DNA of 64,000 nt. Origin: Parcubacteria group bacterium (GTDB taxonomy: Bacteria > Patescibacteriota > Minisyncoccia > JACPHC01). The stretch covers positions 344 through 64,343 of the forward strand of contig JACPHC010000003.1 of assembly GCA_016188775.1 (NCBI GenBank). The letters are read 5' to 3'. Every line of letters begins with the position of its first letter. Positions within the stretch are counted from its first letter, which is position 1. The translations under genes and the position numbers were made by a program. Shown here piece after piece: positions 4,951-63,263 of this stretch. The notes beneath the pieces were generated by a model that saw nothing but the letters and a program-made list of their open reading frames with translations, made no database searches and had not been told where the DNA came from.

Positions 4951-4973
4951 TTTACGAGGCTAAGCCTCGTAAA
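4951..4973. repeat. REP-like palindrome (copy 3; a half copy also at 4934-4946) overlapping the RAYT stop codon
   Basis: TTTACGAGGCTAAGCCTCGTAAA; encodes the last residues ...LRGLAS* of the RAYT on the minus strand. Confidence 0.8.
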
Positions 4974-5596
4974 TTTATTAAAGTGCTTTTTTTATACTGA
5001 ATCGGCCCGCCAAAAAATTTCATTAAAAATTTCCGTTGCGTGACTGAAGGGAAATTTTTTTTCCCAATATAATCACGAAAACTGCTCCATCGATAATTTT
5101 CCAAAAATTTCATCGCTTCTTTATAATTTTTAATTTCTTTATTTTTCCACTCTGGAGATTTCAAATCTAAAGGATTTAAATGGATATAATCAGGAATATG
5201 AAGAAATTGAGCGTCCTTTTCAACTAAAACTGCCTTAAAAGTTCCTTGAAATAAAGAACCGGTTCGTTCGTATTTTTGATTAAAATACATTGTATAACCT
5301 CCTCCTAATTTATGCATAAAATTTGCAATTCCGTTGTCCTGTCGCTGTCTTAAAAGTAAATGAAAATGATTTGGCATTAATGTAAAAACTAAAATTTCGA
5401 CTAATAATTTTCTTTTTTCAATTTTACGAGGCTTAGCCTCGTAATAAGAATTAAGCGCGGGCTTTTCGTCGTTAAATTCAAACAAGTCATGAATAAATCG
5501 AAAATAATCTTTATCATCTAAAAAAATATCGCGCTTTTCCACGCCACGATTATAAATATGATAAATTTTTCCTTCCGTGAATTTTATTTTTCTCAT
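4952..5596 (-). CDS. REP-associated tyrosine transposase (RAYT; IS200/IS605-like Y1 transposase)
   Basis: IYHIYNRGVEKRDIF ... LMPNHFHLLL (HuH motif) ... YTMYFNQKY (catalytic Tyr region). Flanked by REP palindromes. Confidence 0.75.
   Translation of the reverse strand: MRKIKFTEGKIYHIYNRGVEKRDIFLDDKDYFRFIHDLFEFNDEKPALNSYYEAKPRKIEKRKLLVEILVFTLMPNHFHLLLRQRQDNGIANFMHKLGGGYTMYFNQKYERTGSLFQGTFKAVLVEKDAQFLHIPDYIHLNPLDLKSPEWKNKEIKNYKEAMKFLENYRWSSFRDYIGKKNFPSVTQRKFLMKFFGGPIQYKKSTLINLRGLAS
5424..5444. repeat. REP-like palindrome (copy 4) located inside the RAYT CDS, in frame (encodes YYEAKPRK)
   Basis: TTACGAGGCTTAGCCTCGTAA within 4952..5596. Confidence 0.75.
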
Positions 5597-40502: not shown

Positions 40503-40620
40503 GGTTTAACTTTTTATTAATTCTTTAATAATTATAATTATTTTAGCCGCTAAAATCTATGTTAAAAGATTACTACATTTTTAAAAAAATAACCAAATAA
40601 TACAAATACATAATAAAATA

Positions 40621-40690
40621 AAGAAATGGGGTATATTTTGCCACCTCACTGCTTCGCATGAGGATTCCGTCAAAATATACCCCATTTCTT
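40621..40690. repeat. Inverted repeat with 20-bp arms (AAGAAATGGGGTATATTTTG ... CAAAATATACCCCATTTCTT). Its right half is repeated at 41916-41957, flanking the M23 peptidase gene.
   Basis: Read directly from the sequence; the core CACTGCTTCGCATGAGGATTCCGTCAAAATATACCCCATTTCT is shared. Confidence 0.65.
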
Positions 40691-40715
40691 TATTTTATAA
40701 CTATTAGCTATTTTT

Positions 40716-41681: not shown

Positions 41682-41915
41682 TAATACCCCAACAAAAATT
41701 AAGGGCTTCCTAAGAAGCTGTTTTATTGGGCTGATTTTAATTGTTTTAATCGCTCTTTTAAGCTTTTTTGAGCCAAAAAAGCGGGCTAAACGCGTATTAA
41801 TAGATTTAAAAATGGCTTTAATAAGCCATTAATACACTGAATACTCTATTCGACTCTGTTAATGCCAGTTTAGCATCCTGATATTCACTGTCAAGTAATT
41901 TATCCACGCCTACTC

Positions 41916-41957
41916 ACTGCTCCGCATGAGAATTCCGTCAAAATATACCCCACTTCT
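41916..41957. repeat. Partial direct copy of the 40621-40690 repeat (CACTGCTCCGCATGAGAATTCCGTCAAAATATACCCCACTTCT)
   Basis: About 90% identical to the right half of the downstream repeat. Confidence 0.65.
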
Positions 41958-41974
41958 CTGTTGTTTTATTTAAC

Positions 41975-46240: not shown

Positions 46241-47014
46241 ATGAAAAATATAAAAACGTTTGTATCCTCTCTTTTTTTAACATTTATTTTTACTCATATT
46301 GCTTTTGCCGGCACTGCAACGCTTTCTTGGAACGCAAATACGGAAACTGATTTAGCGGGTTATAAAATATATTACGGGACATTGCCCAGAACCAATTCTT
46401 GTCCATTAGGCGGCTATCCAAACAATATCAACGCAGGCAATGTCACGTCTTATGTTTTTAGCAATTTAACTGACGGTCAAACATATTATTTCTCTATTAC
46501 GGCTTACGATGCTTCAAGCAATGAAAGTTGTTTTTCAAGCGAAGTCAGTAAATATATTCCAGTGCCAAATATATATATTTCAAATGTTAAATTTATTCCC
46601 GTTATTGAGAGCGCGACAAGTATTTCTGGTAAAAATTTCACAATAACAATTTTTAATGCCGGAACAACAACCCAAGTCGCTCAATTTACGACTCAACTCG
46701 ATCAATCAGGAAATTTAGTAATGCCTGCGAGCATAAATATAGAAAGCGGCGTTTACGATATCCTTACTTACTCGCCGACATATCTTAAAAAGAAAAAAAA
46801 TAATACTGTTTTGTCATCCAATTCAATCACTTCTTTGCCAACATTGCCGGCTGGCGACTTAAATAATGACAATACCATAAACTCGCTTGATTGGTCATTG
46901 ATGAGTCCTAAATGGTTTAGCCAGGACGCAATAGCGGATATTAACGGAGATAATATAATCAATGCTATTGATTATAGTTTTTTAAACAAAAATTGGTGGT
47001 TGGCGGGGGATTAA
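46241..47014 (+). CDS. Secreted protein with an FN3-like domain and C-terminal dockerin-like repeats
   Basis: Signal peptide; DLNNDNTINSLD and DINGDNIINAIDYSFL resemble dockerin Ca-binding repeats. Confidence 0.55.
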   Translation: MKNIKTFVSSLFLTFIFTHIAFAGTATLSWNANTETDLAGYKIYYGTLPRTNSCPLGGYPNNINAGNVTSYVFSNLTDGQTYYFSITAYDASSNESCFSSEVSKYIPVPNIYISNVKFIPVIESATSISGKNFTITIFNAGTTTQVAQFTTQLDQSGNLVMPASINIESGVYDILTYSPTYLKKKKNNTVLSSNSITSLPTLPAGDLNNDNTINSLDWSLMSPKWFSQDAIADINGDNIINAIDYSFLNKNWWLAGD

Positions 47015-47029
47015 AACAAAATAATTTTT

Positions 47030-47662
47030 ATGAATCAATTCATTAATATAACAAAAGGCAAAACAAGATGGTTTTTTATTGTGGTCGTATTTTTGACGGG
47101 TGTTGGTTTTACTAGTCTTATTTATATTTCTTTACTCTCGACTTCTTTATATATAGAAGGCTTAAATGAATATATTTATAAAAAACAGCCCTTAGTGGCG
47201 CTTTCGCTTATCACTCCAAAAGTTGAAAACTATAAAATTGGCGATCTTGTTGAGGTCGGCATTTTATTAGAAAATGGACAAAAAAAGACGACCGGAGTTG
47301 ATATAGTCTTAACTTATGATCCTCAAATAGTGGAACTTCAAGGCAAAAATTCGCAGATTAAACAAAACGGCAAAACGGAGCCGAAAAATTTTCTTGATGT
47401 TGAATTTTCTTCTTTTGATTTTTTCCCTTATTTTAATTTAAATACTAAAAATGGAAAAATATATTTTTCTGCTTTAGCTAGGCCTTTAAGAGAAGTAGTG
47501 GGAAAAGGAGTAATAGCCACATTAACTTTTAAGGTTATTAAAACAGGAGAAACGAGTATTAATTTAGTTTTTGAAAAGGGCCTTTCTTCGGATTCTAACG
47601 TGGCTTACGCCGGCCGAGATATTTTAAAGCAGGTGCGCAATCTTAATCTTGTTATTAAATGA
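47030..47662 (+). CDS. Membrane-anchored cohesin-like domain protein
   Basis: N-terminal TM segment and a beta-sandwich cohesin-like pattern (VEVGILLENGQKKTTGVDIVLTYDPQIVEL ... VIATLTFKVIKTGETSINL). Confidence 0.45.
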   Translation: MNQFINITKGKTRWFFIVVVFLTGVGFTSLIYISLLSTSLYIEGLNEYIYKKQPLVALSLITPKVENYKIGDLVEVGILLENGQKKTTGVDIVLTYDPQIVELQGKNSQIKQNGKTEPKNFLDVEFSSFDFFPYFNLNTKNGKIYFSALARPLREVVGKGVIATLTFKVIKTGETSINLVFEKGLSSDSNVAYAGRDILKQVRNLNLVIK

Positions 47663-49233
47663 ATTATTTGTTGGGTTTTAAAAATAAAAACCGCCTTTTT
47701 TATTGTCTTATTTTTTTATTTTTTCTACCCGGCATAACGGCAAAAGCGGCTACTTTGTCTTTATCGCCAGCTTCCAGTTCTCAGACAATTGGAGACATTT
47801 TCTCAGTCAATATTTTATTGGACACTCAAGCCGCGGGGATTGATGGCGCGGATATCCTTTATTTAAATTTTAACCCGGTTTTGCTGGAAGTTCAGGATGA
47901 TAATATTGGGGTTACCGGTGTTCAAATTGCCCCGGGCGTTTTAATGATGAATACTTTGGCGAATTCCGCGGATAATGCTACCGGCAGAATCAGTTTTTCT
48001 CAAATTCCGGATTTTGGAAACGCTTTTACCGGAAATGGCGCGTTGGCCACTGTTCGTTTTAAGGCTCTTGCCGCTGGAACTGCGACGGTAACTTTTAATT
48101 TTACCCCTGGCGCGACTAACGACACCAACGCAGCTTCCGGTGGAACTGATATTTTAACCAGCGCTACTAATGGAAATTATACTTTAATCGTTAATCCGCC
48201 ACCATCAGGAGGTGGTGGAGGTGGAGGTGGAGGTGGTGGAGGTGGGGGAGGATCGGATACTACGCCTCCTTCCGCCGTCGCTAATTTAACTGCTTCAAAT
48301 CCCACTGAAACTTCCGTAATTCTTAAATGGATTGCTCCCGGAGATGATGGGGCAAATGGAACAGCTTCAAGTTACGATATACGATATTCGTCAACTTCAA
48401 TCATTACCGATGCTAATTGGATTTCCGCTGTTCAGGCGACAGGCGAACCTATTCCTCAAACGGCCGGCGCTTCCCAATCTTATACTTTAGTCGGACTTAC
48501 GCCATCTAAAACTTATTTCGCCGCAATAAAAACGACTGATGAGCAGTCAAATACCTCCGCTCTTTCCAATATTGCGACATTTCAAACAAATAGTCCGCCT
48601 CCTCCGCCAGATGGAGGCGGCAGTGGTGAAGGTTATGTATCTCCCGCCTCTGACACTTCGCCTCCTGCAAATGTAAAAAATCTTATTTTAACCCCTGGCG
48701 TTAAACGGATTAAGCTTGCGTGGTTAAATCCCAAAAGCGATCCTGATTGGGTAAGAACGATGATTGTAAGAAAAATCGGTTCCGCTCCTATAAGCACTTT
48801 AGACGGCGTTAAAATTTATGAAGGAACAGAAGGAACATTTATTGATTTAAATTTGGAAAAGAATAAGGAATATTTTTATTCCGTTTTTACCCTTGACCTC
48901 GTGCCGAATTATTCCAAAGGAGTAATGGCAAAGGGAATTGCTTTAACTAATCCTTCTTTTTCTTTTACTAAAAACCTTCTTCGTGGTTCAGTCAGCGAAG
49001 AAGTTAAAAATCTTCAAATTCTTCTTAACAATCTTGGTTTTCAGGTAGCGCGATCAGGCAGAGGTTCTTCGGGTAATGAAGTAAACTATTTCGGCAACTT
49101 AACCAAGCAAGCTGTTATTAAATTCCAGAATCATTATCGCGCTGAAATTTTAACTCCTGCCGGATTAACCAAAGGCACGGGTTATGTTGGACCGCTAACA
49201 AGAGCTAAATTGAATATTTTAGCTGAAAAATAA
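47659..49233 (+). CDS. Cell-surface protein: signal peptide, cohesin-like domain, poly-Gly linker, FN3 domains and a C-terminal peptidoglycan-binding domain
   Basis: SVNILLDTQAAGIDGADILYLNFNPVLLEV (cohesin-like); 13 consecutive Gly; TPPSAVANLTAS (FN3 start); C-terminal LQILLNNLGF ... LTKQAVIKFQ (PG_binding_1-like). Confidence 0.6.
   Translation: MNYLLGFKNKNRLFYCLIFLFFLPGITAKAATLSLSPASSSQTIGDIFSVNILLDTQAAGIDGADILYLNFNPVLLEVQDDNIGVTGVQIAPGVLMMNTLANSADNATGRISFSQIPDFGNAFTGNGALATVRFKALAAGTATVTFNFTPGATNDTNAASGGTDILTSATNGNYTLIVNPPPSGGGGGGGGGGGGGGGSDTTPPSAVANLTASNPTETSVILKWIAPGDDGANGTASSYDIRYSSTSIITDANWISAVQATGEPIPQTAGASQSYTLVGLTPSKTYFAAIKTTDEQSNTSALSNIATFQTNSPPPPPDGGGSGEGYVSPASDTSPPANVKNLILTPGVKRIKLAWLNPKSDPDWVRTMIVRKIGSAPISTLDGVKIYEGTEGTFIDLNLEKNKEYFYSVFTLDLVPNYSKGVMAKGIALTNPSFSFTKNLLRGSVSEEVKNLQILLNNLGFQVARSGRGSSGNEVNYFGNLTKQAVIKFQNHYRAEILTPAGLTKGTGYVGPLTRAKLNILAEK
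48205..48251 (+). repeat. GGA/GGT simple sequence repeat encoding a poly-Gly linker
   Basis: GGAGGTGGTGGAGGTGGAGGTGGAGGTGGTGGAGGTGGGGGAGGA. Confidence 0.8.
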
Positions 49234-49266: not shown

Positions 49267-50394
49267 CTATAAAACTACTAATCCCGTCGGCGCGGAAGGC
49301 GGCGTGGTGTCGGAAGTGGTCAAGAGATACCCATTTGCATTTACATTGCCATTCTCATCAATCACATATAAGTAAGTGCTAATAAAATCACTAAAAGAAC
49401 CCTGATTCAAAGTTATGATAATAGATGTATTTGACCAAGCAGACGGGATTTGGATTTCGCACTTATTACGAATGGTAGAAGTTGCACCAGCACAAACTTC
49501 AACTCTTGCCCAAGAGTTATCAATATATAAATCATCCCAATAAGTACTAACAGCTTGTCCCGTGGGGACATTAACTAATCCATATCCAAAATGAGGAGTT
49601 GATAAATATGTACCTGTTTGGGATATTGTAACACCAGTTTTACTTCTTCTAACGACAGTCCCATCACTATGATAAGCAACCCAATTTGCAACTCCATCTG
49701 AAGAATTTGCATCTGTTGAGTCTCGGAACTCTATTTCAAACCGTACCCACTGTGCAGGTCTTATCCAATCATCCCAAGTAGAAGGAATCCATTCTCCGCC
49801 TGTAGAGCCGGTTCTAAACTCATAATAGTTACCACTTGAGCCTATTGTGCCATCAGCTTCCCACCAAGATTGTAAAGCTAACACCGGTTCATCTGCATGT
49901 GCAGGGCCTGAACCAATATGAATTAATTTAATCTGCCAATCTACTAAACTTTGTAAACTTACCATACTCACATAAAGATACCCAGAAATGTATTTTATCC
50001 CTGTAGTCGTCCAAGCATTTAATTTGTAAAAACCATTATTACCTGGACCAAAACCAGTACCTGGATACACCATCCTATCTACTACTGACAAACTTGAACG
50101 ACTATTTCTTTGATTTTTATTTGTGAATTTTGCATCCGCCTGATCATCCCTATTAGTCCAATAACCAGTTGATTCTACATCATTACCATTTGTACCATTT
50201 TCAAAATTCTCCCATTTCAATGGCGCAGCAGTTGCCTTTGTCCCAAACCCACTCCCCGCAATTGTCACTATCCCGTTATGAACAAATGCGCCGCCTGTAT
50301 TCGTGATCTGCACCGCCGCGCTTGCAAAACCCACTCCCCCAAAAAGCCCGAGGGAAATTATGGCGAAGTAAATTAGGTTTTTTGTTTTGCGCAT
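49267..50394 (-). CDS. Secreted surface protein, paralogue 1 (conserved 5' and 3' boxes, variable core; ends ...TTPPSAPTGLVVL*)
   Basis: Signal peptide MRKTKNLIYFAIISLGLFGGVGFASA. The N-terminal ~55 aa and C-terminal ~45 aa are near-identical to 51414..52481. GC is higher than the local average. Confidence 0.6.
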   Translation of the reverse strand: MRKTKNLIYFAIISLGLFGGVGFASAAVQITNTGGAFVHNGIVTIAGSGFGTKATAAPLKWENFENGTNGNDVESTGYWTNRDDQADAKFTNKNQRNSRSSLSVVDRMVYPGTGFGPGNNGFYKLNAWTTTGIKYISGYLYVSMVSLQSLVDWQIKLIHIGSGPAHADEPVLALQSWWEADGTIGSSGNYYEFRTGSTGGEWIPSTWDDWIRPAQWVRFEIEFRDSTDANSSDGVANWVAYHSDGTVVRRSKTGVTISQTGTYLSTPHFGYGLVNVPTGQAVSTYWDDLYIDNSWARVEVCAGATSTIRNKCEIQIPSAWSNTSIIITLNQGSFSDFISTYLYVIDENGNVNANGYLLTTSDTTPPSAPTGLVVL

Positions 50395-50523
50395 GTTTTT
50401 AGTTTACCACCAATCCCGTCGGCGCCGCGGGCGGGGTGGTGTCGGGCAGTTTTTCGCGCGTTTTAATATATTATTTTGCTATTCCAAATTTTTTCGGATT
50501 TTCTAAAACACCTTTAACTCCTC

Positions 50524-50883
50524 TTAAGAAAACATCAAAATCAACCAATTTATCATTGATGATTTTATAATTCTGTAACCAGCCATCTCTTGTAGCGCGG
50601 TATCGGCAAAGTGTTTGTCAACAATGTGATATTCTCCGATTTTTCTTGCCATCTCTTTGTATTCCGAAGCCTGGGCGCCGGGAATTCTCGATAATATGTG
50701 GGCGCTGATATGGAACACTCCTTCCAATGCTCGATGGAGGTGGAATTGAGCTAATTTAAAACCAACTCCTTTTTCAAATTCTTCAAACGACAATTGCGCG
50801 AGCTTCTCAAGTTCTTTAATTTCTCCTTGAATTCCGTTTATTCTTTTTAGAATAATGTCTCTATCAAGAAAAAGTTTTGTCAT
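50524..50883 (-). CDS. hepT: HepT-like (DUF86) toxin of a HepT/MntA toxin-antitoxin pair
   Basis: Size and a C-terminal RxxxxHxY-like region (ARKIGEYHIV); 4-nt overlap with the upstream MntA gene. Confidence 0.6.
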   Translation of the reverse strand: MTKLFLDRDIILKRINGIQGEIKELEKLAQLSFEEFEKGVGFKLAQFHLHRALEGVFHISAHILSRIPGAQASEYKEMARKIGEYHIVDKHFADTALQEMAGYRIIKSSMINWLILMFS

Positions 50884-51290
50884 ATTCTTTGAAGTATGGC
50901 TTTATGGAACTCTGATCGCAATGGAGCAAAATCGGCATATTCCTCCATTGTCGTTTCCAAGAAATTTGAGATTATTTTCTGATCTCCAAGATAGAGCAAA
51001 ACGCCGTCTTGGGCGATGCGATGCTTAATTTGTAAATCAGCTTGTTCAACAAAGACAATATCAATATTGATTAGGGCGTTAATTTGTTTAGACAGTATTT
51101 CATAAAGCTTATTATAGATTTTTTTTCTTTCCGCGGCGTCTCTTATCATTTTTTTATTTTTAACCAAAACGGCAAAGTCAAAATCGCTGGTTTTATTTGC
51201 CGTTCCCTGGGCTTGTGAACCAAACAAAAAAATGCCGGCAATGCCAAGTTCTTCCATTTTTTCTTTTTGAAATTTAAATTTCATAAACAT
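50880..51290 (-). CDS. mntA: MntA-like minimal nucleotidyltransferase (antitoxin)
   Basis: GS-x9-13-DxD motif: LFGSQAQGTANKTSDFDFAV. Confidence 0.75.
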   Translation of the reverse strand: MFMKFKFQKEKMEELGIAGIFLFGSQAQGTANKTSDFDFAVLVKNKKMIRDAAERKKIYNKLYEILSKQINALINIDIVFVEQADLQIKHRIAQDGVLLYLGDQKIISNFLETTMEEYADFAPLRSEFHKAILQRI

Positions 51291-51317
51291 AATATACCAT
51301 AGTAATTATTACCAGTT

Positions 51318-51413
51318 CAACTTTAATTTACCGCCAATCCCGCCCGCCTTCATTACATTACGGCCCGCTTCGCCTAAGCTCCAGCGAGGCGAGCGAGGCC
51401 AGTCGGCCTTCAA
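51318..51413. repeat. GC-rich stacked scars of the surface-protein 3' module (near-identical to 52515-52600)
   Basis: AATCCCGCCCGCCTTCA ... TTACGGCCCGCTTCGCCTAAGCTCCAGCGAGGCGAGCGAGGCCAGTCGGCCT is shared by both loci. Confidence 0.7.
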
Positions 51414-52481
51414 TTAATTTACGGCGAGGCCCGTCGGCGCGGAAGGCGGGGCGGTGTCGGGAGTGGTCAAGAGATACCCATTTGCATTTACATTGCCATT
51501 CGCATCAAATACGTAGAGGTAGGCATTATTTTGAATTTCTAGATTTCCTTGGTTTATAGTTATTGTAATGGAGGTATCTGACCAGGCTAATGGAATCTGA
51601 ACCTCCCGAATAGTGGAGGCCGCCAAAGTTGGAGCATTCCCAATCTCAGCCCTAGCCCACGTGTTATCTATATATATGTTATCCGCATATGTAATATCAT
51701 CAGGTCTACCCGTAGCACCACCTGCCGCGGCTGCACCTACCCATCCTCCAATATGGGGTTCCTGAATTCCTGGGGCATTTGTGTCGGCAAAACGAAGCCC
51801 AGTTCCGCTTGATATAAGGACATTATCCATATATATATACGCAGAACCATTAGCTCCATATACCCCATTATTATAATCTATATCTAATATAACCTTAAAA
51901 TCGTACCATTTGTCCTTTAACGCAGAAAAATTTCCCCATGAGGTTTCGGGCGACAGATTACCTAAATATATTTTATTAAGCTCATGTCTTGCGTCTAACG
52001 CAAAATTCGGGGGCGCGCCATCCCAATTATCGCCCCACATGAATATTTTTTCGTTTCCAGTGCCTCCGCTTGTGTCAAAAGTAAAATTAGGATCCCATTT
52101 CCATTTAAAAAAGGCTATTGTATGGTTGAGCGTTTGCCCCACAGGTTTTGATGCCCATCTTGTTCCATAGTTTGCGAATGATTCAAATTGCAGGAATCTT
52201 GTTGAGACTGCGCTTATTTGGTTAGGGCCTGTTGCGTAAACATTGTTACCAATAACACTATTATAATTAGCTGCGACCGTGCCTGTTTCAGCATCATCCC
52301 ACCATAGCGGCGCAGCTATTGCCTTTGTCCCAAACCCGCTCCCCGCAATTGTCACTATCCCGTTATGAACAAATGCGCCGCCTGTATTCGTGATCTGCGC
52401 CGCCGCGCTTGCAAAACCCGCTCCCCCGAAAAGCCCGAGGGAAATTATGGCGAGACAAATTATGTTTTTTGATTTGTTCAT
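51414..52481 (-). CDS. Secreted surface protein, paralogue 2 (ends ...DTAPPSAPTGLAVN*)
   Basis: Signal peptide MNKSKNIICLAIISLGLFGGAGFASA. Termini are shared with paralogue 1; the core is divergent. Confidence 0.6.
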   Translation of the reverse strand: MNKSKNIICLAIISLGLFGGAGFASAAAQITNTGGAFVHNGIVTIAGSGFGTKAIAAPLWWDDAETGTVAANYNSVIGNNVYATGPNQISAVSTRFLQFESFANYGTRWASKPVGQTLNHTIAFFKWKWDPNFTFDTSGGTGNEKIFMWGDNWDGAPPNFALDARHELNKIYLGNLSPETSWGNFSALKDKWYDFKVILDIDYNNGVYGANGSAYIYMDNVLISSGTGLRFADTNAPGIQEPHIGGWVGAAAAGGATGRPDDITYADNIYIDNTWARAEIGNAPTLAASTIREVQIPLAWSDTSITITINQGNLEIQNNAYLYVFDANGNVNANGYLLTTPDTAPPSAPTGLAVN

Positions 52482-52514
52482 AAATTTGACCCTAAACTAA
52501 TGACCGCTTTCTAC

Positions 52515-52600
52515 TGTACCGCTAATCCCGCCCGCCTTCAATTAATTTACGGCCCGCTTCGCCTAAGCTCCAGCGAGGCGAGCGAGGCCAGTCGGCCTGC
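52515..52600. repeat. GC-rich 3' module scar (copy of 51318-51413)
   Basis: About 75 nt near-identical to the 51340-51413 copy. Confidence 0.7.
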
Positions 52601-52604
52601 AATC

Positions 52605-52907
52605 TTAATATATATATGGGTTGTATATTTCTACGTCTGATTGAAGGTTTATGATTCCCGAGACACCGAAAATTACTATCCTTGCCTCTGAAGCAGTCAC
52701 GGCCTCTCTGAAACTTCCAGGCCCATTATCATTTAAGTTTGTAACTCTAATAACTTGTCCTCCCCTGCCGCCCACGCTATTTGCTCCAAAACCTTCAGCC
52801 CCTGGAAAAGCAACTAACGCAAATGAACTTTTGGAAATTCCAAAGACGCCAAGCAGGATAATGATATTAATAATTAAAATTTTGCTTTTTAATTTCATAT
52901 TTCCCAC
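52605..52907 (-). pseudogene. N-terminal fragment (100 aa) of a pectate-lyase-like secreted protein
   Basis: Signal peptide plus AFPGAEGFGANSVGGRGGQVIRVTNLNDNGPGSFREAV (the pectate lyase N-terminal motif), then a premature stop followed by the module scar. Confidence 0.5.
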
Positions 52908-54103
52908 GCTTCAATAATATTGTGTCTGCCAACGTTTTTCATTTTAACGGATAAAGAAACAATTTTAAAATTAAAATCTTTATAATTTTCCATAAAAATT
53001 TTATAATTCTTTTCTTTAAATTGCAGCGGCTGGGCTTTAACTTCTATCGCTTCCTTTTCTTTAATAATAAAATCAATTTCATTTTTCTGGACTGTGCGCC
53101 AAAATTTTATATCATTTGAATCATATTTATCAAGAAGCTGGCGGAAAACAGCGTTTTCAAGAAGTATGCCCTTATCTTCCCTTGTGTCATAAGGAGAAAA
53201 ATTATCAACCAAAAAATTTCTTAATCCCAAGTCGTAAAAATAAACCTTGGGCATCTTGGTTAGCTCTTTTCTTACATTTTTATAAAAAGGGTTTATCAAT
53301 TTTATATGAAATGATTTTTGCATTACATATAAATAATGATCTACGGCGGTTTTTGAAACTCCCAAAGTATTAGCTAATTCCGAAGCATTAACGAGACTGC
53401 CAACCTGAACGGCAAAAATCTTGAATAATTTATAAAAAATTTCTTCTTGCCGAATATGGGCCTCAAAAATATCTTTTTTGATATACGAATAAACTATGTC
53501 TCTCAAAATATCTTGCTTTTCCGATAAAGGAGCTAAAACCACCCGCGGATAGCCGCCGTAAATAATATACTCTCTATAATATAGCTCAATTTTTTCTTTT
53601 TCAGACAATGTTAATTTTTCAAAATCTTTTTTGGATAATTCTTCTTCCTCTTTAAAGCGCAGAAATTCCCTGAAAGAAACGGTGAAAACATTGAATATCT
53701 TTTTTCTTCCGGCCAGCGAATCTTTAAATTTTTTATCCAAATAAAACGCGGATGAGCCGGAAGCAATAATTTTAATAGCGCCGGCATACTCGTCATAAAA
53801 ATATTTTAAAAAATTTGAAGGATTTTTGAGATATTGAATTTCATCAATAAAAATAAAGTTTTTCTTTTTTAAATCAACGGGGAAAATTTTAAAAAGATTT
53901 TTAGGCGATTCATTAAGCAGAATCAGATAATCAGGATCTTCTAAATTCAAAAAATAGGTTTTTTTATTCTCTTGTTCAAGAATGCTTTGAAGTTGTTTTA
54001 AAATTGTAGTTTTTCCCGCTTGTCTTGAGCCAATAAAAATAAGGATTTCCGGATCCTCAAGGTATTTTCGGGCTTTTAATGTAATATCTCTGATAATAGT
54101 CAT
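52895..54103 (-). CDS. AAA+ ATPase with C-terminal DUF4143-type domain (COG1373-like)
   Basis: Walker A GSRQAGKTT and Walker B IFIDEIQ; 402 aa. Confidence 0.7.
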   Translation of the reverse strand: MTIIRDITLKARKYLEDPEILIFIGSRQAGKTTILKQLQSILEQENKKTYFLNLEDPDYLILLNESPKNLFKIFPVDLKKKNFIFIDEIQYLKNPSNFLKYFYDEYAGAIKIIASGSSAFYLDKKFKDSLAGRKKIFNVFTVSFREFLRFKEEEELSKKDFEKLTLSEKEKIELYYREYIIYGGYPRVVLAPLSEKQDILRDIVYSYIKKDIFEAHIRQEEIFYKLFKIFAVQVGSLVNASELANTLGVSKTAVDHYLYVMQKSFHIKLINPFYKNVRKELTKMPKVYFYDLGLRNFLVDNFSPYDTREDKGILLENAVFRQLLDKYDSNDIKFWRTVQKNEIDFIIKEKEAIEVKAQPLQFKEKNYKIFMENYKDFNFKIVSLSVKMKNVGRHNIIEAWEI

Positions 54104-54144
54104 AAATACATTTTATCCGTTATTTTGTATTTGTCAAATTATTA

Positions 54145-54195
54145 TTTCTATTGTACCACTAATCCCGCCCGCCTGAGAGACCCTTTCGCCTGCAA
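54145..54195. repeat. GC-rich 3' module scar (variant copy)
   Basis: CTAATCCCGCCCGCCTGAGAGACCCTTTCGCCTGCAATTAATTTACGG. Confidence 0.6.
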
Positions 54196-55962
54196 TTAAT
54201 TTACGGCTAGGCCAGTCGGCGCCGCGGGCGGGGTAGTGTCCTGCTGTGCTCCTGACACATATTCATACGCGCCAATATCCCAAGCCAATCCTTGTGGGCG
54301 AGTTACCTTGTCGAAGTCTACGGCGATAGAGAGGCCGTAAATATTTTGGAAGGTTTGGTAAACCGAGGAAACAAGGCCCGCATTTACAGCGGAACTTCCC
54401 GATTGGAGATGGAAATCATTTGCCGATGAGTTTACAAATAACGGATCGGCATTCAAAGAATTCGCGCCCTTACTGGTTGCCGACTGGAAAGTGGCAAGCG
54501 AGGTATAGGTATTCGCGCCCCAAATCGTCTTAAAACCACCTCCAAAAAGAAAGTTATCAACCGTTGAGTTTGCGGCGTTTATCGATGAAGCAAGAAATAT
54601 ATCGCTTCCCGCTCCCAGTCCCGCGATAATGTTATTAGCCATGAAAAAAGAGCCGCTGTCGGGGGAATTCACGCCAGCGTCCACATCATAAAATGTATTG
54701 TTGATGACATAGCGGTTCCGCCCTCCCCAGGTGGTCATGGCCGCTCCGTTTGAATAAGCGTTATTGGGATCGAAAGCCGGACTGTGAATGCCATGAATCA
54801 CGTTGCCGATAAAATACAAATTCTGACCAAAGCCATCTCCATCCGGCCCGCTTGTGCTGGCGCCGCCGATACCCGTGTGGCAATCATACAAATTGTTATA
54901 GAGAAACCACACCCGTTCCGGACCGTACTGATACCCGGCGCAATTGCCCCCGGACGACGATGGGCTTGGCACAATTCCGTAGGCGGTATTTCGCGAGAAA
55001 ACCACATCGGTTGCCTGCTTCGTCCAAAATCCGGTCTGTTTATGGTGATGAGATGTATTTCCCCCAAAATAAATATGATGAGTTCGCGACGTAACTGAAT
55101 CAGAATCCGCCTTGCTGCCGCCGTTGACTTGAATGCCGTCGCCGCTGCAGCGCGCAAGTTCATTATCGAGCACCCAAACATTGTCAGCATGCCCAATTCC
55201 GACACAATGAACATCTTGGTCGATCGTTGTGGCGATGTCGCCATTGTCATGGATATAATTACTGTACACCAAAATATTCGAAATTCGGTTAGTATCAGAG
55301 CTTGCGATCTCGACTCCGCCGCCCACGAGGTTCCCATGCGCGTCGCTAAAACGAAGCGCGAGGTGATCTGACGGCGATACGATAACGAAACTCCCGGACG
55401 AGCCTCCGGAAAGGTCGCCGTCCGCATCGGCAAATTCAAGATTTTCGAAGATAGCATAAGTTCCCTTGACTTGCATGTTTGCAATAATTTTTGGCTTTTC
55501 TGAATCGCTAACCCCCCGGATAAAGACCGGACTTGTCGAGGTTCCGTTCGCGGTAATGATATTAGGATTGGTATAGCTGCATATCCCTGAGCAATCCCGA
55601 TATATATTTCCATGCATTTCGACAACGGATCCTTCCGGAATGGGTTTAGGCGGACTTTTTCGCGGTAAGGCCGGTGTTCCATAGAGGTTATTTGAATCAG
55701 TAGCGCCGGCGCATGAAGTGCAGACGAAATAAAAGCCGGGGGTGGGCAATGTCCATGGATTCGGGGCTACGGGCGCGGTTTCTGCGATGCCAAACGGCGG
55801 ATTTGGAATGCCGACAGGAGGAATATACGCGTGAACCGTACTTCCCAAAACGATGATGCTTGCCAAGACTAGGAACAACGAAGCGAGCCAAAGCGATATT
55901 TGTTTTATAAGCCAACGGAAAGGAAAATAATTTAAATATGAAATATTTGCTTTTTTAAACAT
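54196..55962 (-). CDS. Secreted right-handed beta-helix (pectate-lyase-fold) protein ending in the shared ...DTTPPAAPTGLAVN* module
   Basis: Signal/TM segment, NxDxxH-rich beta-helix repeats (NGDIATTIDQDVHCVGIGHADNVWVLDNE...) and WDIGAYEY near the C-terminus. High GC. Confidence 0.65.
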   Translation of the reverse strand: MFKKANISYLNYFPFRWLIKQISLWLASLFLVLASIIVLGSTVHAYIPPVGIPNPPFGIAETAPVAPNPWTLPTPGFYFVCTSCAGATDSNNLYGTPALPRKSPPKPIPEGSVVEMHGNIYRDCSGICSYTNPNIITANGTSTSPVFIRGVSDSEKPKIIANMQVKGTYAIFENLEFADADGDLSGGSSGSFVIVSPSDHLALRFSDAHGNLVGGGVEIASSDTNRISNILVYSNYIHDNGDIATTIDQDVHCVGIGHADNVWVLDNELARCSGDGIQVNGGSKADSDSVTSRTHHIYFGGNTSHHHKQTGFWTKQATDVVFSRNTAYGIVPSPSSSGGNCAGYQYGPERVWFLYNNLYDCHTGIGGASTSGPDGDGFGQNLYFIGNVIHGIHSPAFDPNNAYSNGAAMTTWGGRNRYVINNTFYDVDAGVNSPDSGSFFMANNIIAGLGAGSDIFLASSINAANSTVDNFLFGGGFKTIWGANTYTSLATFQSATSKGANSLNADPLFVNSSANDFHLQSGSSAVNAGLVSSVYQTFQNIYGLSIAVDFDKVTRPQGLAWDIGAYEYVSGAQQDTTPPAAPTGLAVN

Positions 55963-55984
55963 TAGTAATTTTTTATATTAGTTT

Positions 55985-56040
55985 CAAATTTTAATTTACC
56001 GCCAATCCAGTCGGCGTGGCGGGCGGAGTGGTGTCAGGGG
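55985..56040. repeat. 3' module scar upstream of the beta-helix protein gene
   Basis: TTAATTTACCGCCAATCCAGTCGGCGTGGCGGGCGGAGTGGTGTCAGG. Confidence 0.6.
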
Positions 56041-56486: not shown

Positions 56487-56750
56487 TTACAAGTGTTTAT
56501 AAATATCTTTACGGTGATCAATATCAAAAAAGATCACTGTTGTCATGTCTTGAAAATAAAATAAAACTCTATATTGACGAGTAATTCTAAATGAAAAAGC
56601 ATATTCAAGAGAATAAACTTTTTTGATATGTAATCGTGAATCACGCCAGTTATTAACAAAACGCTCCTTTTGGATTTCAAAAAAGCGTTGGATATTTTTT
56701 GGTAATTTAGAAAAATTATGATCAAAATCTTCAGAACAGATTATCCGCAT
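56487..56750 (-). CDS. RelE/ParE-family toxin
   Basis: An 87-aa product with YRVLFYFQDMTTVIFFDIDHRKDIY, the RelE/ParE C-terminal signature. Confidence 0.6.
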   Translation of the reverse strand: MRIICSEDFDHNFSKLPKNIQRFFEIQKERFVNNWRDSRLHIKKVYSLEYAFSFRITRQYRVLFYFQDMTTVIFFDIDHRKDIYKHL

Positions 56751-56950
56751 AATAATCTTGGAGGATATTTTTTTAAGGCTTTCTGATATGAATTTTTAAT
56801 CCGTTCCGGATGCGCGTATTCTTTAATATTTTCTCGTGGAAGAATTAATGTGATTTCCTGACGCAAAAAACGCACTTCTTGCAAAAGAGAATTTAGTGTT
56901 TTATTGATGTTTAATTTATCTTTTTGAATTTTAACAGTCGTTGTATTCAT
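56741..56950 (-). CDS. Putative cognate antitoxin (69 aa)
   Basis: Directly upstream of the toxin with a 10-nt overlap; a palindromic operator lies upstream. Confidence 0.45.
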   Translation of the reverse strand: MNTTTVKIQKDKLNINKTLNSLLQEVRFLRQEITLILPRENIKEYAHPERIKNSYQKALKKYPPRLLCG

Positions 56951-59981: not shown

Positions 59982-60001
59982 AATTTCAATCTGCCAAAGA
60001 A

Positions 60002-60093
60002 TGTCATTGCGAACGACCGAAGGAAGCAAAGCAATCTCAAAAGCTCGTATAAACACGAGATTGCCACGGCGTCTTCGACGCCTCGCGATGACA
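60002..60093. mobile_element. MITE-like element B, copy 3 (TGTCATTGCGA ... CCTCGCGATGACA inverted repeats)
   Basis: Terminal inverted repeats, 20 nt after the pnp stop. Confidence 0.55.
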
Positions 60094-61268: not shown

Positions 61269-62513
61269 ATGACTCCAACTAATTTCGATGAAGAAAAAGA
61301 GGATCTTTTGCATCGAATTGTCCAAGCAAGGCGTAAACTTGAAGAACTGCGCGCTTCAGGTCCTAAACCCGCCCCGGAAATCAAAATAGAAACGGAAATT
61401 AAAAAACCGGAGTTTAAAATTGAAGAATCCGAAAGGTTAAAATTGGAAGCCGAAGAAGAAATACGAAAAATCATTGAAAAAAAACCGGAAATTCCCGAAG
61501 CGGAAATTATAAAACCCCTGCCGATTTTGCCGGAAGAAAAACCGGAAATCTTGTTCAAGCCAAAACTTGAACCGATTATTCGGACTATGCATCAAGATAT
61601 CGCCGAACTCAAACCTAAAACAACTGAACCGTTAAAACCAATAACTCCGCCCATCGCGGTCCCGCTTCCTCAAAGATTTTCTCCGGCCAAAACTCCTCAG
61701 GTTCTGCCTAAAAATTTTTTCAAAATAATTTTCGCCGGTCTCATCGCCGTTTTGTTCCTCGCGTTGATTGGAGGAAGCGTTGGTTGGTATTTTAAATATC
61801 AGCCGGCCCTACCTCGAATTAAAAAGTTGGAAGCCCCGGAAAGTTTTATTCGCTCTGAAAAAAATACTGTCATTGAACTGGCAACGCTCAACGAAAAAAC
61901 AATCAGACAGGCCGTCCAAAACGAAACGGTTTCTCTTGAAAAAAATACTTTCAAAGAAATTTATTTTAAAAAGTCTTTTGCCGAACAATTTTGCCGATTT
62001 GGCAAATGCGTCAACGTCAGCCGAGAAAAATTTATTGCTTCAAAAGATTTTTTTCAAGCTTTGGAAATTCGAGCGCCGGAATCGTTTTTTGAATCGCTGG
62101 AACCTGAATTCAATATTTTAATATTCAATCAAAATGATCAACCCAGGCGCGGTTTAATTTTCCAAAGCCGAGATTTGGAAAAAACCCGTTTTGCCCTGGA
62201 AACTTGGCCCGACATTATTAACGATTTAGCTTTTTTATTTGAAGGCATTCCGATTGGCATTGAAGCTAAGGCTCAACCGTTTAAAGACGGATTGTATCAA
62301 AATATCTCGTTTCGAAGCATCGATTTGGGCGGTTTTAACTCTTCGTTTGATTATTTTTTCTTCCCGGCTAAAAATATTGTGATTTTAAGTTCTTCCGGCG
62401 ATTTAACTCGAGAATTAATTAACCGATTATTAGGCCAGCCCGAAATTATTCCGTCGATTATTGAAATAATTCCCGAACAAACCATTCCTTCTCCGAAACC
62501 TATTTTTCCGTAG
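61269..62513 (+). CDS. Hypothetical membrane-anchored protein
   Basis: Internal TM helix FKIIFAGLIAVLFLALIGGSVGWYF; placed 4 nt after the previous gene. Confidence 0.5.
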   Translation: MTPTNFDEEKEDLLHRIVQARRKLEELRASGPKPAPEIKIETEIKKPEFKIEESERLKLEAEEEIRKIIEKKPEIPEAEIIKPLPILPEEKPEILFKPKLEPIIRTMHQDIAELKPKTTEPLKPITPPIAVPLPQRFSPAKTPQVLPKNFFKIIFAGLIAVLFLALIGGSVGWYFKYQPALPRIKKLEAPESFIRSEKNTVIELATLNEKTIRQAVQNETVSLEKNTFKEIYFKKSFAEQFCRFGKCVNVSREKFIASKDFFQALEIRAPESFFESLEPEFNILIFNQNDQPRRGLIFQSRDLEKTRFALETWPDIINDLAFLFEGIPIGIEAKAQPFKDGLYQNISFRSIDLGGFNSSFDYFFFPAKNIVILSSSGDLTRELINRLLGQPEIIPSIIEIIPEQTIPSPKPIFP

Positions 62514-62516
62514 TTT

Positions 62517-62650
62517 GTCATTGCGAGCAAAGCGAAGCAATCTTAAAAAGAATCGCGTAAATTTTTAAATTAAGAGATCGCTTCGGCCATTCCATCGCCT
62601 CGCAATGACGGTTAAAAGATTGTTTTTAACGATTCCATCGCCTCGCGCTG
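62517..62650. mobile_element. MITE-like element B, copy 1 (inverted repeats GTCATTGCGAG / CTCGCAATGAC) plus an extra partial right end
   Basis: TGTCATTGCGAGCAAAGCGAAGCAATC ... GATCGCTTCGGCCATTCCATCGCCTCGCAATGACGG, then GATTCCATCGCCTCGCGCTG. Confidence 0.65.
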
Positions 62651-63059
62651 TATGCTTTATTGAATAATAAATCTTACCTGTGGATAAATTGGGGAAATGA
62701 TAAAGAATTACAAATGTAAATTTATTAAACTATCTTTAAAAATCCGCTCAACCAAGCGGATTTTTAAAGATTAAACATTTGACAAATATCTTAAAAAGTT
62801 ATCAACTGAATAACCTATTGACTTCTTTCGCGCGTAGACTAAAATATAAATAGATCTTTGCGAGTTTGAAAAAATTTCCCGAATTCAACGGGAAAACAGT
62901 TCTTTTTTCAATTTTGTTCTTTGCTCAAAGTCCAATTCGGACAAACTGGCAGAGATTTGCAAATTTCTGTCTTGTTTCGAAGACAGAACCAAAGGCGCTT
63001 TAGCCCAATTTATACAAAATATATTTTAAGGGCTTATAAAGCGCCTTTTTTATTTATTT

Positions 63060-63199
63060 TGTCATTGCGAGCTGAAAGCGAAGCAATTTCAAAAAAAATC
63101 GCGTAAATTTTTAAATTAAGAGATCGCTTCGGCCATTCCATCTCCTCGCAATGACGGTTAAAAGATTGTTTTAGCGATTCCATCGCCCCGCAATGACGA
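63060..63199. mobile_element. MITE-like element B, copy 2 (about 90% identical to copy 1, with a duplicated right end)
   Basis: TGTCATTGCGAGCTGAAAGCGAAGCAAT ... CTCCTCGCAATGACGG ... GATTCCATCGCCCCGCAATGACGAG. Confidence 0.65.
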
Positions 63200-63263
63200 G
63201 CTGAAAAATTATTTTGATGATTTCATTTGATATCTGATTTTACAAATAGTAAAATAAAAGCAA

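Follow-up and report, generated by a model that had tools for sequence, protein, structure and literature searches.

The window analysed here, a 64,000-nucleotide (nt) stretch of a 64.7-kb contig from the metagenome-assembled genome (MAG) of a Parcubacteria group bacterium, carries a tandem array of genes for secreted, glycan-acting enzymes on its minus strand (locus tags HYV52_012xx). According to the list of open reading frames (ORFs), every gene between 49.2 and 56.1 kb lies on that strand. In the direction of transcription, a DksA-like gene is followed by an orphan copy of a short 3' module, a gene for a 588-amino-acid (aa) beta-helix protein, an ATPase gene, the stump of a pectate-lyase gene, a 355-aa gene, a MntA/HepT-type pair, a second orphan module and a 375-aa gene. 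An earlier note on this DNA had placed a DUF4143 ATPase between a complete beta-helix gene and an N-terminal lyase fragment, and this is the arrangement found, with all features on the minus strand:

52895..54103, minus strand: AAA_14 + DUF4143 (PD-(D/E)xK-type) ATPase, 402 aa, intact; PADLOC candidate PDC-S01
54110..54137, minus strand: ATPase promoter TTGACA-16-TAAAAT inside the motif TTTGACAAATACAAAATATCNGATAAAATGTATTT, from a sigma-70-like match
52605..52898, minus strand: 97-codon PL1-type pectate-lyase stump, signal peptide and first ~70 mature residues
54196..55962, minus strand: 588-aa secreted right-handed beta-helix protein, complete, C-terminus DTTPPAAPTGLAVN, from the ORF and its homologs
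54145..54240, minus strand: GC-rich 3' element of the 588-aa gene, with A part (54240-54215), gene end and stop (to 54196), spacer and B relic GGGATTAGTGGTACAATAG (54166-54148)
52508..52603, minus strand: 3' element remnant after the stump, lacking the A part, with U2 and a 28-nt hairpin insert, a second stop-containing end and B relic GGGATTAGCGGTACAGTAG

The ATPase gene and the lyase stump

Pfam scans covered 67 ORFs across the 64 kb, comprising all substantial ORFs of at least 110 aa and a few shorter ones near the array. They assigned the ATPase to AAA_14 (7e-30, 104.1 bits against a cut-off of 27) and to DUF4143 (1.4e-34, 119.6 bits against a cut-off of 28.1); the earlier note had proposed the latter search, which came out above the gathering score. 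The PADLOC profile PDLC04789, representing PDC-S01, matched residues 1-384 of 402 (3.5e-99). DUF4143 belongs to the PD-(D/E)xK superfamily (PMC3424549). In an alignment with 14 homologs, the Walker A (GSRQAGKTT) and Walker B (FIDEIQ) motifs were kept, as were the GSS, GRK and YGGYP motifs, and the acidic and lysine residues of DUF4143 (E-N...WR...EIDF...EVK, that is E..D..ExK) were conserved across the 15 sequences. The gene looks functional. No solved structure was detectable by sequence and NCBIfam holds no model for the ATPase, whose family is known, though functionally uncharacterised. The protein probably performs nucleoside triphosphate-driven cleavage of nucleic acids, for defence or for the spread of its own gene.

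The composition of the gene (GC 0.30; GC at third codon positions 0.275) contrasts with that of the window (0.394), of the housekeeping genes in the window (0.40-0.48) and of the 588-aa gene (0.49). Its promoter is the best sigma-70-like match in 52400-54300, with 11 of 12 positions, and the motif in which it lies, (GGATAAAATGTA)TTTGACAAATACAAAATATCNGATAAAATGTATTT, aligns upstream of at least 10 ATPase homologs and is conserved in other phyla. DNA similarity to other loci comprised the gene and 35-55 nt upstream (to 54137-54158), with nothing downstream. Likewise, the flanks of 16 homologs had nothing in common beyond the promoter motif, and the left ends were not conserved between copies. In the upstream region (54104-54147; also loci L002-L019 of our comparison set), GATAAAATGTATTT was repeated and a palindrome, TGTATTTG.CAAATACA, covered the -35 box; TGTATTTGACAAATACA is an operator-like palindrome. 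This conserved promoter and operator-like motif hints that the ATPase may be autoregulated. No intrinsic terminator was found in 52400-54300.

Downstream of the ATPase lies the lyase stump. The program-made ORF list extends it to a GTG at 52907 (52605..52907), while both the annotation of the NCBI record and the gene call on a Logan contig start it at ATG 52898, giving 97 aa. Given that this ATG is the likely start, the overlap with the ATPase gene is a 4-nt ATGA. The earlier note had correctly recognised a signal peptide and a lyase N-terminal motif in the fragment, and its length of 100 aa and its overlap of 13 nt have to be corrected accordingly. Close ATPase homologs end in ATA-TAA, so the lyase ATG would be partly built from the last codon of the ATPase, with the junction exactly at this point.

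The stump carries its signal peptide and AFPGAEGFGANSVGGRGG, and matches residues 27-94 of the 458-aa solved pectate lyase 9buj (4.8e-7), as well as VexL and Jun a 1. It is 61% identical to residues 21-94 of a 517-aa homolog reconstructed from locus L089. Its reading frame ends in NPYIY-stop, where homologs run on with NPY[IL]TIAGQTAPG and a further ~420 residues. It matched no lyase domain in Pfam, and the missing ~420 codons were not found elsewhere in the window; they are truly absent, since the 517-aa homolog matches the window at 52832..52611 only. The earlier note had considered that a frameshift might disguise a full-length gene, but a frameshift cannot hide these codons, because only ~120 nt separate the stump from the next gene. 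In addition, an independent Logan assembly of SRR12113422 reproduced the junction of ATPase, stump and 3' element base for base (100%), the contig breaking inside the repeat just past the stump, and all contigs with the exact ATPase or 588-aa protein displayed an identical arrangement. The closest stump homologs lie on short, frameshifted contigs that give no useful synteny.

The earlier note had also proposed a comparison of the fragment with the full 588-aa product; the two shared no similarity. Homologs of the 588-aa protein (up to 53% identity) span 94% of its length and carry Pfam Beta_helix, and on the basis of this coverage we consider the 588-aa gene complete. By comparison with its own homologs, the lyase gene has evidently lost four fifths of its length. 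The stump, which lacks the parallel beta-helix catalytic core, is accordingly best described as a pseudogene and not an enzyme.

The 3' elements of the array

The remaining members of the array, together with its orphan modules, are as follows:

51414..52481, minus strand: 355-aa secreted protein, array family member; extended 3' element at 51458-51323
49267..50394, minus strand: 375-aa paralog of the 355-aa protein; last array gene, with a simple module at its end
50400..50443, minus strand: orphan simple module (DTTPPAAPTGLVVN-stop), without gene body, 5 nt upstream of the 375-aa gene start
55993..56035, minus strand: orphan 45-nt simple module, without gene body, 30 nt upstream of the 588-aa gene start
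50524..51290, minus strand: nucleotidyltransferase/HEPN pair of the MntA/HepT toxin-antitoxin type, inserted between array 3' elements

A search of the window confined the module motif to 49267-56035 on the minus strand. In its simple form, the module consists of GACACCACCCCGCCCGCGGCGCCGAC and GGGATTGGTGGTAAACTAA and encodes DTTPPAAPTGLVVN-stop. In the extended form, found at the 588-aa and 355-aa genes, the true gene end GGCCTMGCCGTAAATTAA (GLAVN-stop) lies between the two halves of the simple form; the 355-aa gene end and the element after the stump hold an additional unit with a 28-nt hairpin insert. The extended architecture also occurs in comparison loci L082 and L086, and this recurrence indicates that it is conserved and not random. 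The elements have a GC content of 57-60% against 39% for the window. The 3' element of the 588-aa gene can form a hairpin, with a folding z-score of only -1.7 (-0.3 to -2 for the elements overall, relative to shuffled sequences), and Rfam returned no known RNA family in the 3' elements.

The coding part of the module is widespread at the protein level. Across many lineages, the C-termini of 355-aa protein homologs read ...PPSAPTGLxVx or ...CPxPPTNLxVQ. Many 588-type homologs of several phyla share the tail, and others run on from this very position into a complete Fn3 domain. Among 80 metagenomic loci of the 355-aa family, 16 ORFs of at least 250 aa had such tails, and the GC-rich DNA motif was present in only two loci. 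These comparisons identify DTTPPxAPTGLxVN-stop as the native C-terminus of the 355/375 family and of many 588-type beta-helix proteins. Since the tail is a native protein terminus, sharing of the 3' module is not in itself evidence of recombination. The earlier note had spoken of module scars, which is half right: the module is not primarily a recombination scar, and the appearance of a relic from a lost gene is confined to the orphan copies (56035-55993 and 50443-50400) and to the extra ends in tandem. The idea of a diversity-generating retroelement, raised by the shared 3' ends, was rejected, as the shared part is only ~45 nt long and the Pfam scans detected no reverse transcriptase.

As a side observation, the tail uses GC-rich codons for Pro, Ala and Thr (CCG, CCC, GCG, ACC) in this 39% GC genome. 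Between the window and L082, identity is 75-92% for the module DNA but only ~31% for the proteins of the gene bodies. This pattern suggests that the nucleic acid itself is constrained, or that gene ends undergo GC-biased conversion.

The stump runs directly into such an element (52603..52508), as the earlier note had reported. From its stop codon, the sequence reads TAA-GA-TTGCAGG-CCGACTGGCCTCGC-hairpin-GGGCCGTAAATTAA-TTGAAGG-CGGGCGGGATTAGCGGTACAGTAG, colinear with and 95-100% identical to the sequence past the stop codon of the 355-aa gene, including 51 identical bases (52547-52597 after the stump, 51358-51408 in the 355 element, 100%). Most simply, this can be read as a lyase gene with an end of the 355 type from which all sequence after codon 97 and up to the last codon has been lost, in the AT-rich run TATATATATTAA. 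This supports the internal deletion joining a gene start to a gene end that the earlier note had suspected; by homolog comparison and by the second assembly, the truncation is real.

The two elements also form a direct repeat that brackets the ATPase and the stump. The upstream copy, within 54145..54240 (GC 0.60), lies at 54174..54145, 41 nt upstream of the ATPase start codon, and the downstream copy is element 52508..52603, directly after the stump. They share a 30-nt core (2 mismatches) and colinear blocks of 21 and 12 nt. The window ATPase thereby passes the test for flanking direct repeats described below, but the periodic repeats of the array itself adequately explain this pair.

Relatives of the ATPase and the history of the locus

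Relatives of the ATPase were examined in 80 GTDB-species loci, at 26-83% identity. About 19 of them, at 56-83% identity, belong to MAGs labelled Patescibacteria, Saccharibacteria, Gammaproteobacteria, Clostridia, Acidobacteriota and others, and relatives at ~50% to MAGs labelled Elusimicrobia, Omnitrophota and Spirochaetales. None of the 80 loci had a homolog of the 588-aa protein, the lyase stump, or the 355-, 375- or 524-aa protein within 6 kb, so that the universal synteny by which the earlier note would have been refuted was not observed. The family was found on 484 of 72,556 plasmids. Carriage by phages was discarded, as IMG/VR contigs held no close relative and phage records only 14 weak matches. 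In a reciprocal comparison, the nearest relatives of the 588-aa protein (53% and 51%) and of the 355-aa protein (69%) lie in glycosyltransferase loci without the ATPase, and a DUF4143 gene was present in one of the 80 metagenomic loci of the 355-aa family (692 kb). The earlier note had suggested that the ATPase travels with the recombining locus or was captured by it; these counts support capture and speak against joint travel.

The single exception is L128, which represents the same population as L082 (99.98% identity) and carries a clearly related array, with signal peptides and tails as in the window, adjoining homologs of the proteins encoded at 46241-47014 (an Fn3-dockerin protein, doc257) and 47659-49233. 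Its DUF4143 ATPase gene comes after the first beta-helix gene and the extended 3' element of the latter, has its own TTGACA-N17-TATACT promoter and is bracketed by B-type ends (3319-3337 and 4596-4614). It belongs to a different clade, being 34% identical to the ATPase of the window and ~40% to paralogs elsewhere, whereas identity between the two loci reaches 49-60% for their doc257 homologs. We read the two ATPases as probable independent arrivals at equivalent sites, or as a replacement, and not as vertical synteny. Gene callers reported at L082 1840-4593 (L128 3614-6373) a 917-aa "Pel9A-like beta-helix + AAA_14 + DUF4143" fusion; this is an artefact of a frameshift just before the C-terminal module of the beta-helix gene, which lets the frame continue into the ATPase gene with its separate promoter.

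For each ORF in the 80 ATPase loci, we looked for direct repeats of at least 20 nt shared by the 500-nt flanks on its two sides. Such repeats flanked 20 of 75 DUF4143 ORFs (27%), against 2 of the 128 remaining ORFs with a length of 250 aa or more (1.6%; Fisher p = 4e-8); in a first pass, four of six apparent control matches had been further DUF4143 genes. Fourteen cases remained once two loci with tandem ATPases were set aside. The repeats, found at L005, L006, L010, L012, L027, L030, L039, L040, L052, L060, L064 and L067, are specific to each locus, 20-60 nt long and 88-100% identical. The downstream copy mostly begins 0-76 nt past the DUF4143 stop codon, and in 8 of the 14 cases the start codon of a host ORF in the same orientation falls within this copy or shortly behind it, with for example a PyrG-like or RecG-like N-terminus. 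No conserved element ends, terminal inverted repeats, transposase or integrase were seen at the repeat-flanked loci.

These statistics are a lead that a very common ATPase family moves by itself. Possibly, though we hold this to be doubtful, DUF4143/PDC-S01 genes are autonomous single-gene mobile units, rather than or besides being defence genes, which insert promoter first with target duplication and for which the 3' hairpin element is a preferred landing site. Such a unit would insert into the 5' end of a host gene of the same orientation, or immediately upstream of it, and would duplicate 20-60 nt or more of target, so that the host gene survives. The GC-rich 3' hairpin element is suggested as a landing site because the window copy and the L082/L128 copy, of a different clade, share this spot. 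If the family is mobile with long target duplications, its abundance and patchy distribution would need no defence function, and its counts in defence censuses would have to be re-read.

For the window itself, where an intact ATPase of contrasting composition and without general synteny stands between repeated 3' elements and beside a truncated lyase gene, we favour with moderate confidence an insertion of the ATPase into a decaying enzyme array, with a separate local deletion leaving the lyase stump. The ATPase gene would have arrived by horizontal transfer, bringing its own conserved promoter and operator, and would have entered the short spacer that separated the lyase start codon from the GC-rich 3' element of the 588-aa gene. 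The lyase gene would then have lost ~1.25 kb, from codon 97 to about its own stop codon, leaving the 97-codon stump fused to the lyase's own 3' element. We infer this order, insertion then deletion, and the deletion likely proceeded through microhomology in the AT-rich run. The orphan modules would mark other lost array genes, one of them beside the inserted MntA/HepT-type pair. The locus is mostly ordinary genome decay, and what appeared to be a recombining cassette system is simplified to a decaying secreted-enzyme array into which genes of a selfish or defence type, the PDC-S01 ATPase and the MntA/HepT-type pair, have intruded.

Several observations weigh against this history. The two bracketing B relics share a derived GGTACARTAG that is absent from all other copies, and these bases would also fit target duplication by a single insertion that carried the stump. 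No empty-site allele was found, the three contigs (3/3) with the exact 588-aa protein having the same arrangement. The right end of the deletion falls in frame and exactly at the stop codon, slightly too tidy a position for a random event. Finally, the L082/L128 ATPase occupies an equivalent position, which is unlikely by chance if insertion is random; some site preference, or cassette replacement, is therefore possible.

One alternative is that ATPase and stump entered together as one 1.55-kb unit, the stump being a passenger from an earlier host locus, with duplication of ~76 nt of the 588-aa gene's 3' element, no full-length lyase ever having existed here. Colinear repeats do bracket 54144..52604, with the downstream copy beginning 1-2 nt past the stump's stop and both copies ending in the unique GGTACARTAG; the frequency of repeats around DUF4143 genes (20/75 against 2/128 control ORFs) and the B-type ends around the L082 ATPase point in the same direction. 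We nevertheless rate it as unlikely: the downstream copy holds the U2 hairpin unit, 51 nt identical to the 355 element and absent from the 588 element, and looks like the lyase gene's own 355-type end. Moreover, other loci have the duplicated 5' piece of the host gene upstream of the ATPase, not downstream, and neighbouring array units are expected to share repeats regardless. Still less support can be given to the ATPase as a long-standing member of the array, inherited vertically and linked to it in function, perhaps regulating or protecting it. In the limited data, the ATPases of the window and of L082 each group with genes from unrelated contexts. The low identity of the two ATPases (34%), each with closer kin elsewhere (up to 83% for the window, ~40% for L082/L128), compared with 49-60% for the doc257 homologs of the same loci, is hard to reconcile with common descent, as are the foreign composition and private promoter of the gene and its absence from the 79 other 355-family loci and from the closest 588 and 355 relatives. 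What speaks for a vertical origin is that the ATPase in L082/L128, an array adjoining homologs of doc257 and of the 524-aa anchor, also directly follows the first beta-helix gene.

An integron-like cassette array, in which the palindromic modules would serve as attC-like sites and the ATPase, the MntA/HepT-type pair and the enzymes as cassettes moved by a site-specific recombinase, appears very improbable. The co-oriented genes, each followed by an imperfect palindrome, with toxin-antitoxin genes among them, invite this comparison, as do the B-type ends that bound foreign genes in the window and in L082 (ATPase, MntA/HepT-type pair, RhuM). However, no integrase, resolvase or other recombinase of the tyrosine or serine type was detected in the 67 ORFs scanned across 64 kb (on a contig of only 64.7 kb, a more distant integrase is possible), no GTTRRRY-type core was visible on reading the sequence, folding barely beats the shuffled controls (z -0.3 to -2) and Rfam was empty; the supposed site is coding, and its peptide is kept as a protein terminus in phyla without the DNA motif. 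Lastly, we attach next to no credence to the idea that the lyase gene is really full-length and that the stump arose by an error of sequencing or assembly. Two assemblers produced the identical junction, three contigs have the same arrangement, and 420 codons cannot be hidden by a frameshift in 120 nt, even though the Logan contig breaks in the repeat just past the stump, showing that repeats confuse assemblers here.

Surroundings of the array and known systems

The array is surrounded by housekeeping genes (PNPase, RpsO, NusA, ClpP, trigger factor, UvrD, KsgA, RNase Y and others). Selfish-type genes other than the ATPase also lie at array junctions. In the window, the MntA/HepT-type pair adjoins an orphan module. 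Its nucleotidyltransferase was called as MntA by NCBIfam (5.2e-22, 77.7 bits against a cut-off of 60) and as PDC-S09 by PADLOC. The HepT partner is a weak call, with 30.3 bits for NCBIfam HepT_toxin against a cut-off of 60, and 1.7e-06 and 28.2 bits for Pfam HepT-like against a gathering score of 23.5. A small gene pair at 56487-56950 is RelE-like by eye and has no family match. In the comparison loci, L083 carries an MNT-HEPN pair with an IS1595 transposase (768-1714) and L082 a RhuM gene followed by a B-type relic (804-1799).

One IS200-like Y1 protein, possibly associated with repetitive extragenic palindromes (REP), is encoded at 4952-5596 on the minus strand, 48 kb from the array (Y1_Tnp, 4.2e-9). 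A separate family of palindromic repeats, with GTCATTGCGAG...CTCGCAATGAC, occurs near the end of the window (59989-60014 and 62503-63226), and a LysM/M23 peptidase gene is flanked by a perfect inverted repeat of 28 nt, its arms 30 nt apart, and by a related copy at a distance of 1.3 kb (40607-40698 and 41908-41972). Shuffling by inversion with the convergent 524-aa cohesin-Fn3 gene was rejected, as no inverted repeat joins the DTTPPSA region of that gene to the modules.

The tail of the array enzymes, PPxAPTGLxVN, corresponds to positions 1-10 of Pfam fn3, that is to strand A (49267-50394, 51414-52481 and 54196-55962). In neighbouring anchored proteins, Fn3 starts at strand B (A[TK]LSW), directly after a signal peptide, transmembrane segment or lipobox. 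These observations come from 46241-47014, 47030-47662 and 47659-49233 of the window, from L086 (2002-2421), L128 (11141-11569, and 11582 onward) and L093 (101-469). The protein at 46241-47014 (doc257) combines a strand-B-start Fn3 with a dockerin, and is followed by two cohesin proteins, one of them Fn3-Fn3-PG_binding. This complementarity suggests that the enzymes may donate their strand to an incomplete Fn3 that is itself tethered to the wall by cohesin-dockerin pairing. The match between tail and strand A thus points to a predicted way of tethering enzymes to the cell surface in small-genome bacteria.

With regard to known systems, the ATPase resembles PDC-S01 (COG1373) in its full-length profile match, its two-domain build of ATPase and PD-(D/E)xK superfamily, and its organisation as a stand-alone single gene. 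It differs in its setting, since the window copy lies in an enzyme array beside housekeeping genes and not in a recognisable defence island. Among the "defence" genes of prokaryotes, PDC-S01 reportedly ranks fourth in frequency, with a mechanism that is not known and an anti-phage activity that is not validated (PMC12988326).

The stump shares with PL1 pectate lyases (9buj, VexL, Jun a 1) the N-terminal AFPGAEGFG..GGRGG..V(T)NL.D.GPGS(L/F)R block, and departs from them in keeping only ~70 mature residues, without the catalytic beta-helix core. As for integrative elements and transposons, the likeness lies in the direct repeats of 20-60 nt that flank DUF4143 genes elsewhere, often with the 5' end of a downstream host gene. 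These repeats are, however, far longer than classical target-site duplications, and no transposase, integrase or terminal inverted repeats were seen; the ATPase unit holds the ATPase as its only gene, with no transposase gene or conserved terminal repeats.

In integron gene cassettes and in the pdif modules of Acinetobacter, small genes are bracketed by short structured recombination sites. The array resembles integron cassettes in that its co-oriented genes are parted by GC-rich imperfect palindromes, with toxin-antitoxin and ATPase genes interspersed. By contrast with integrons, it has neither a recombinase among the ORFs scanned nor canonical core sites, and its repeat encodes a conserved protein terminus.

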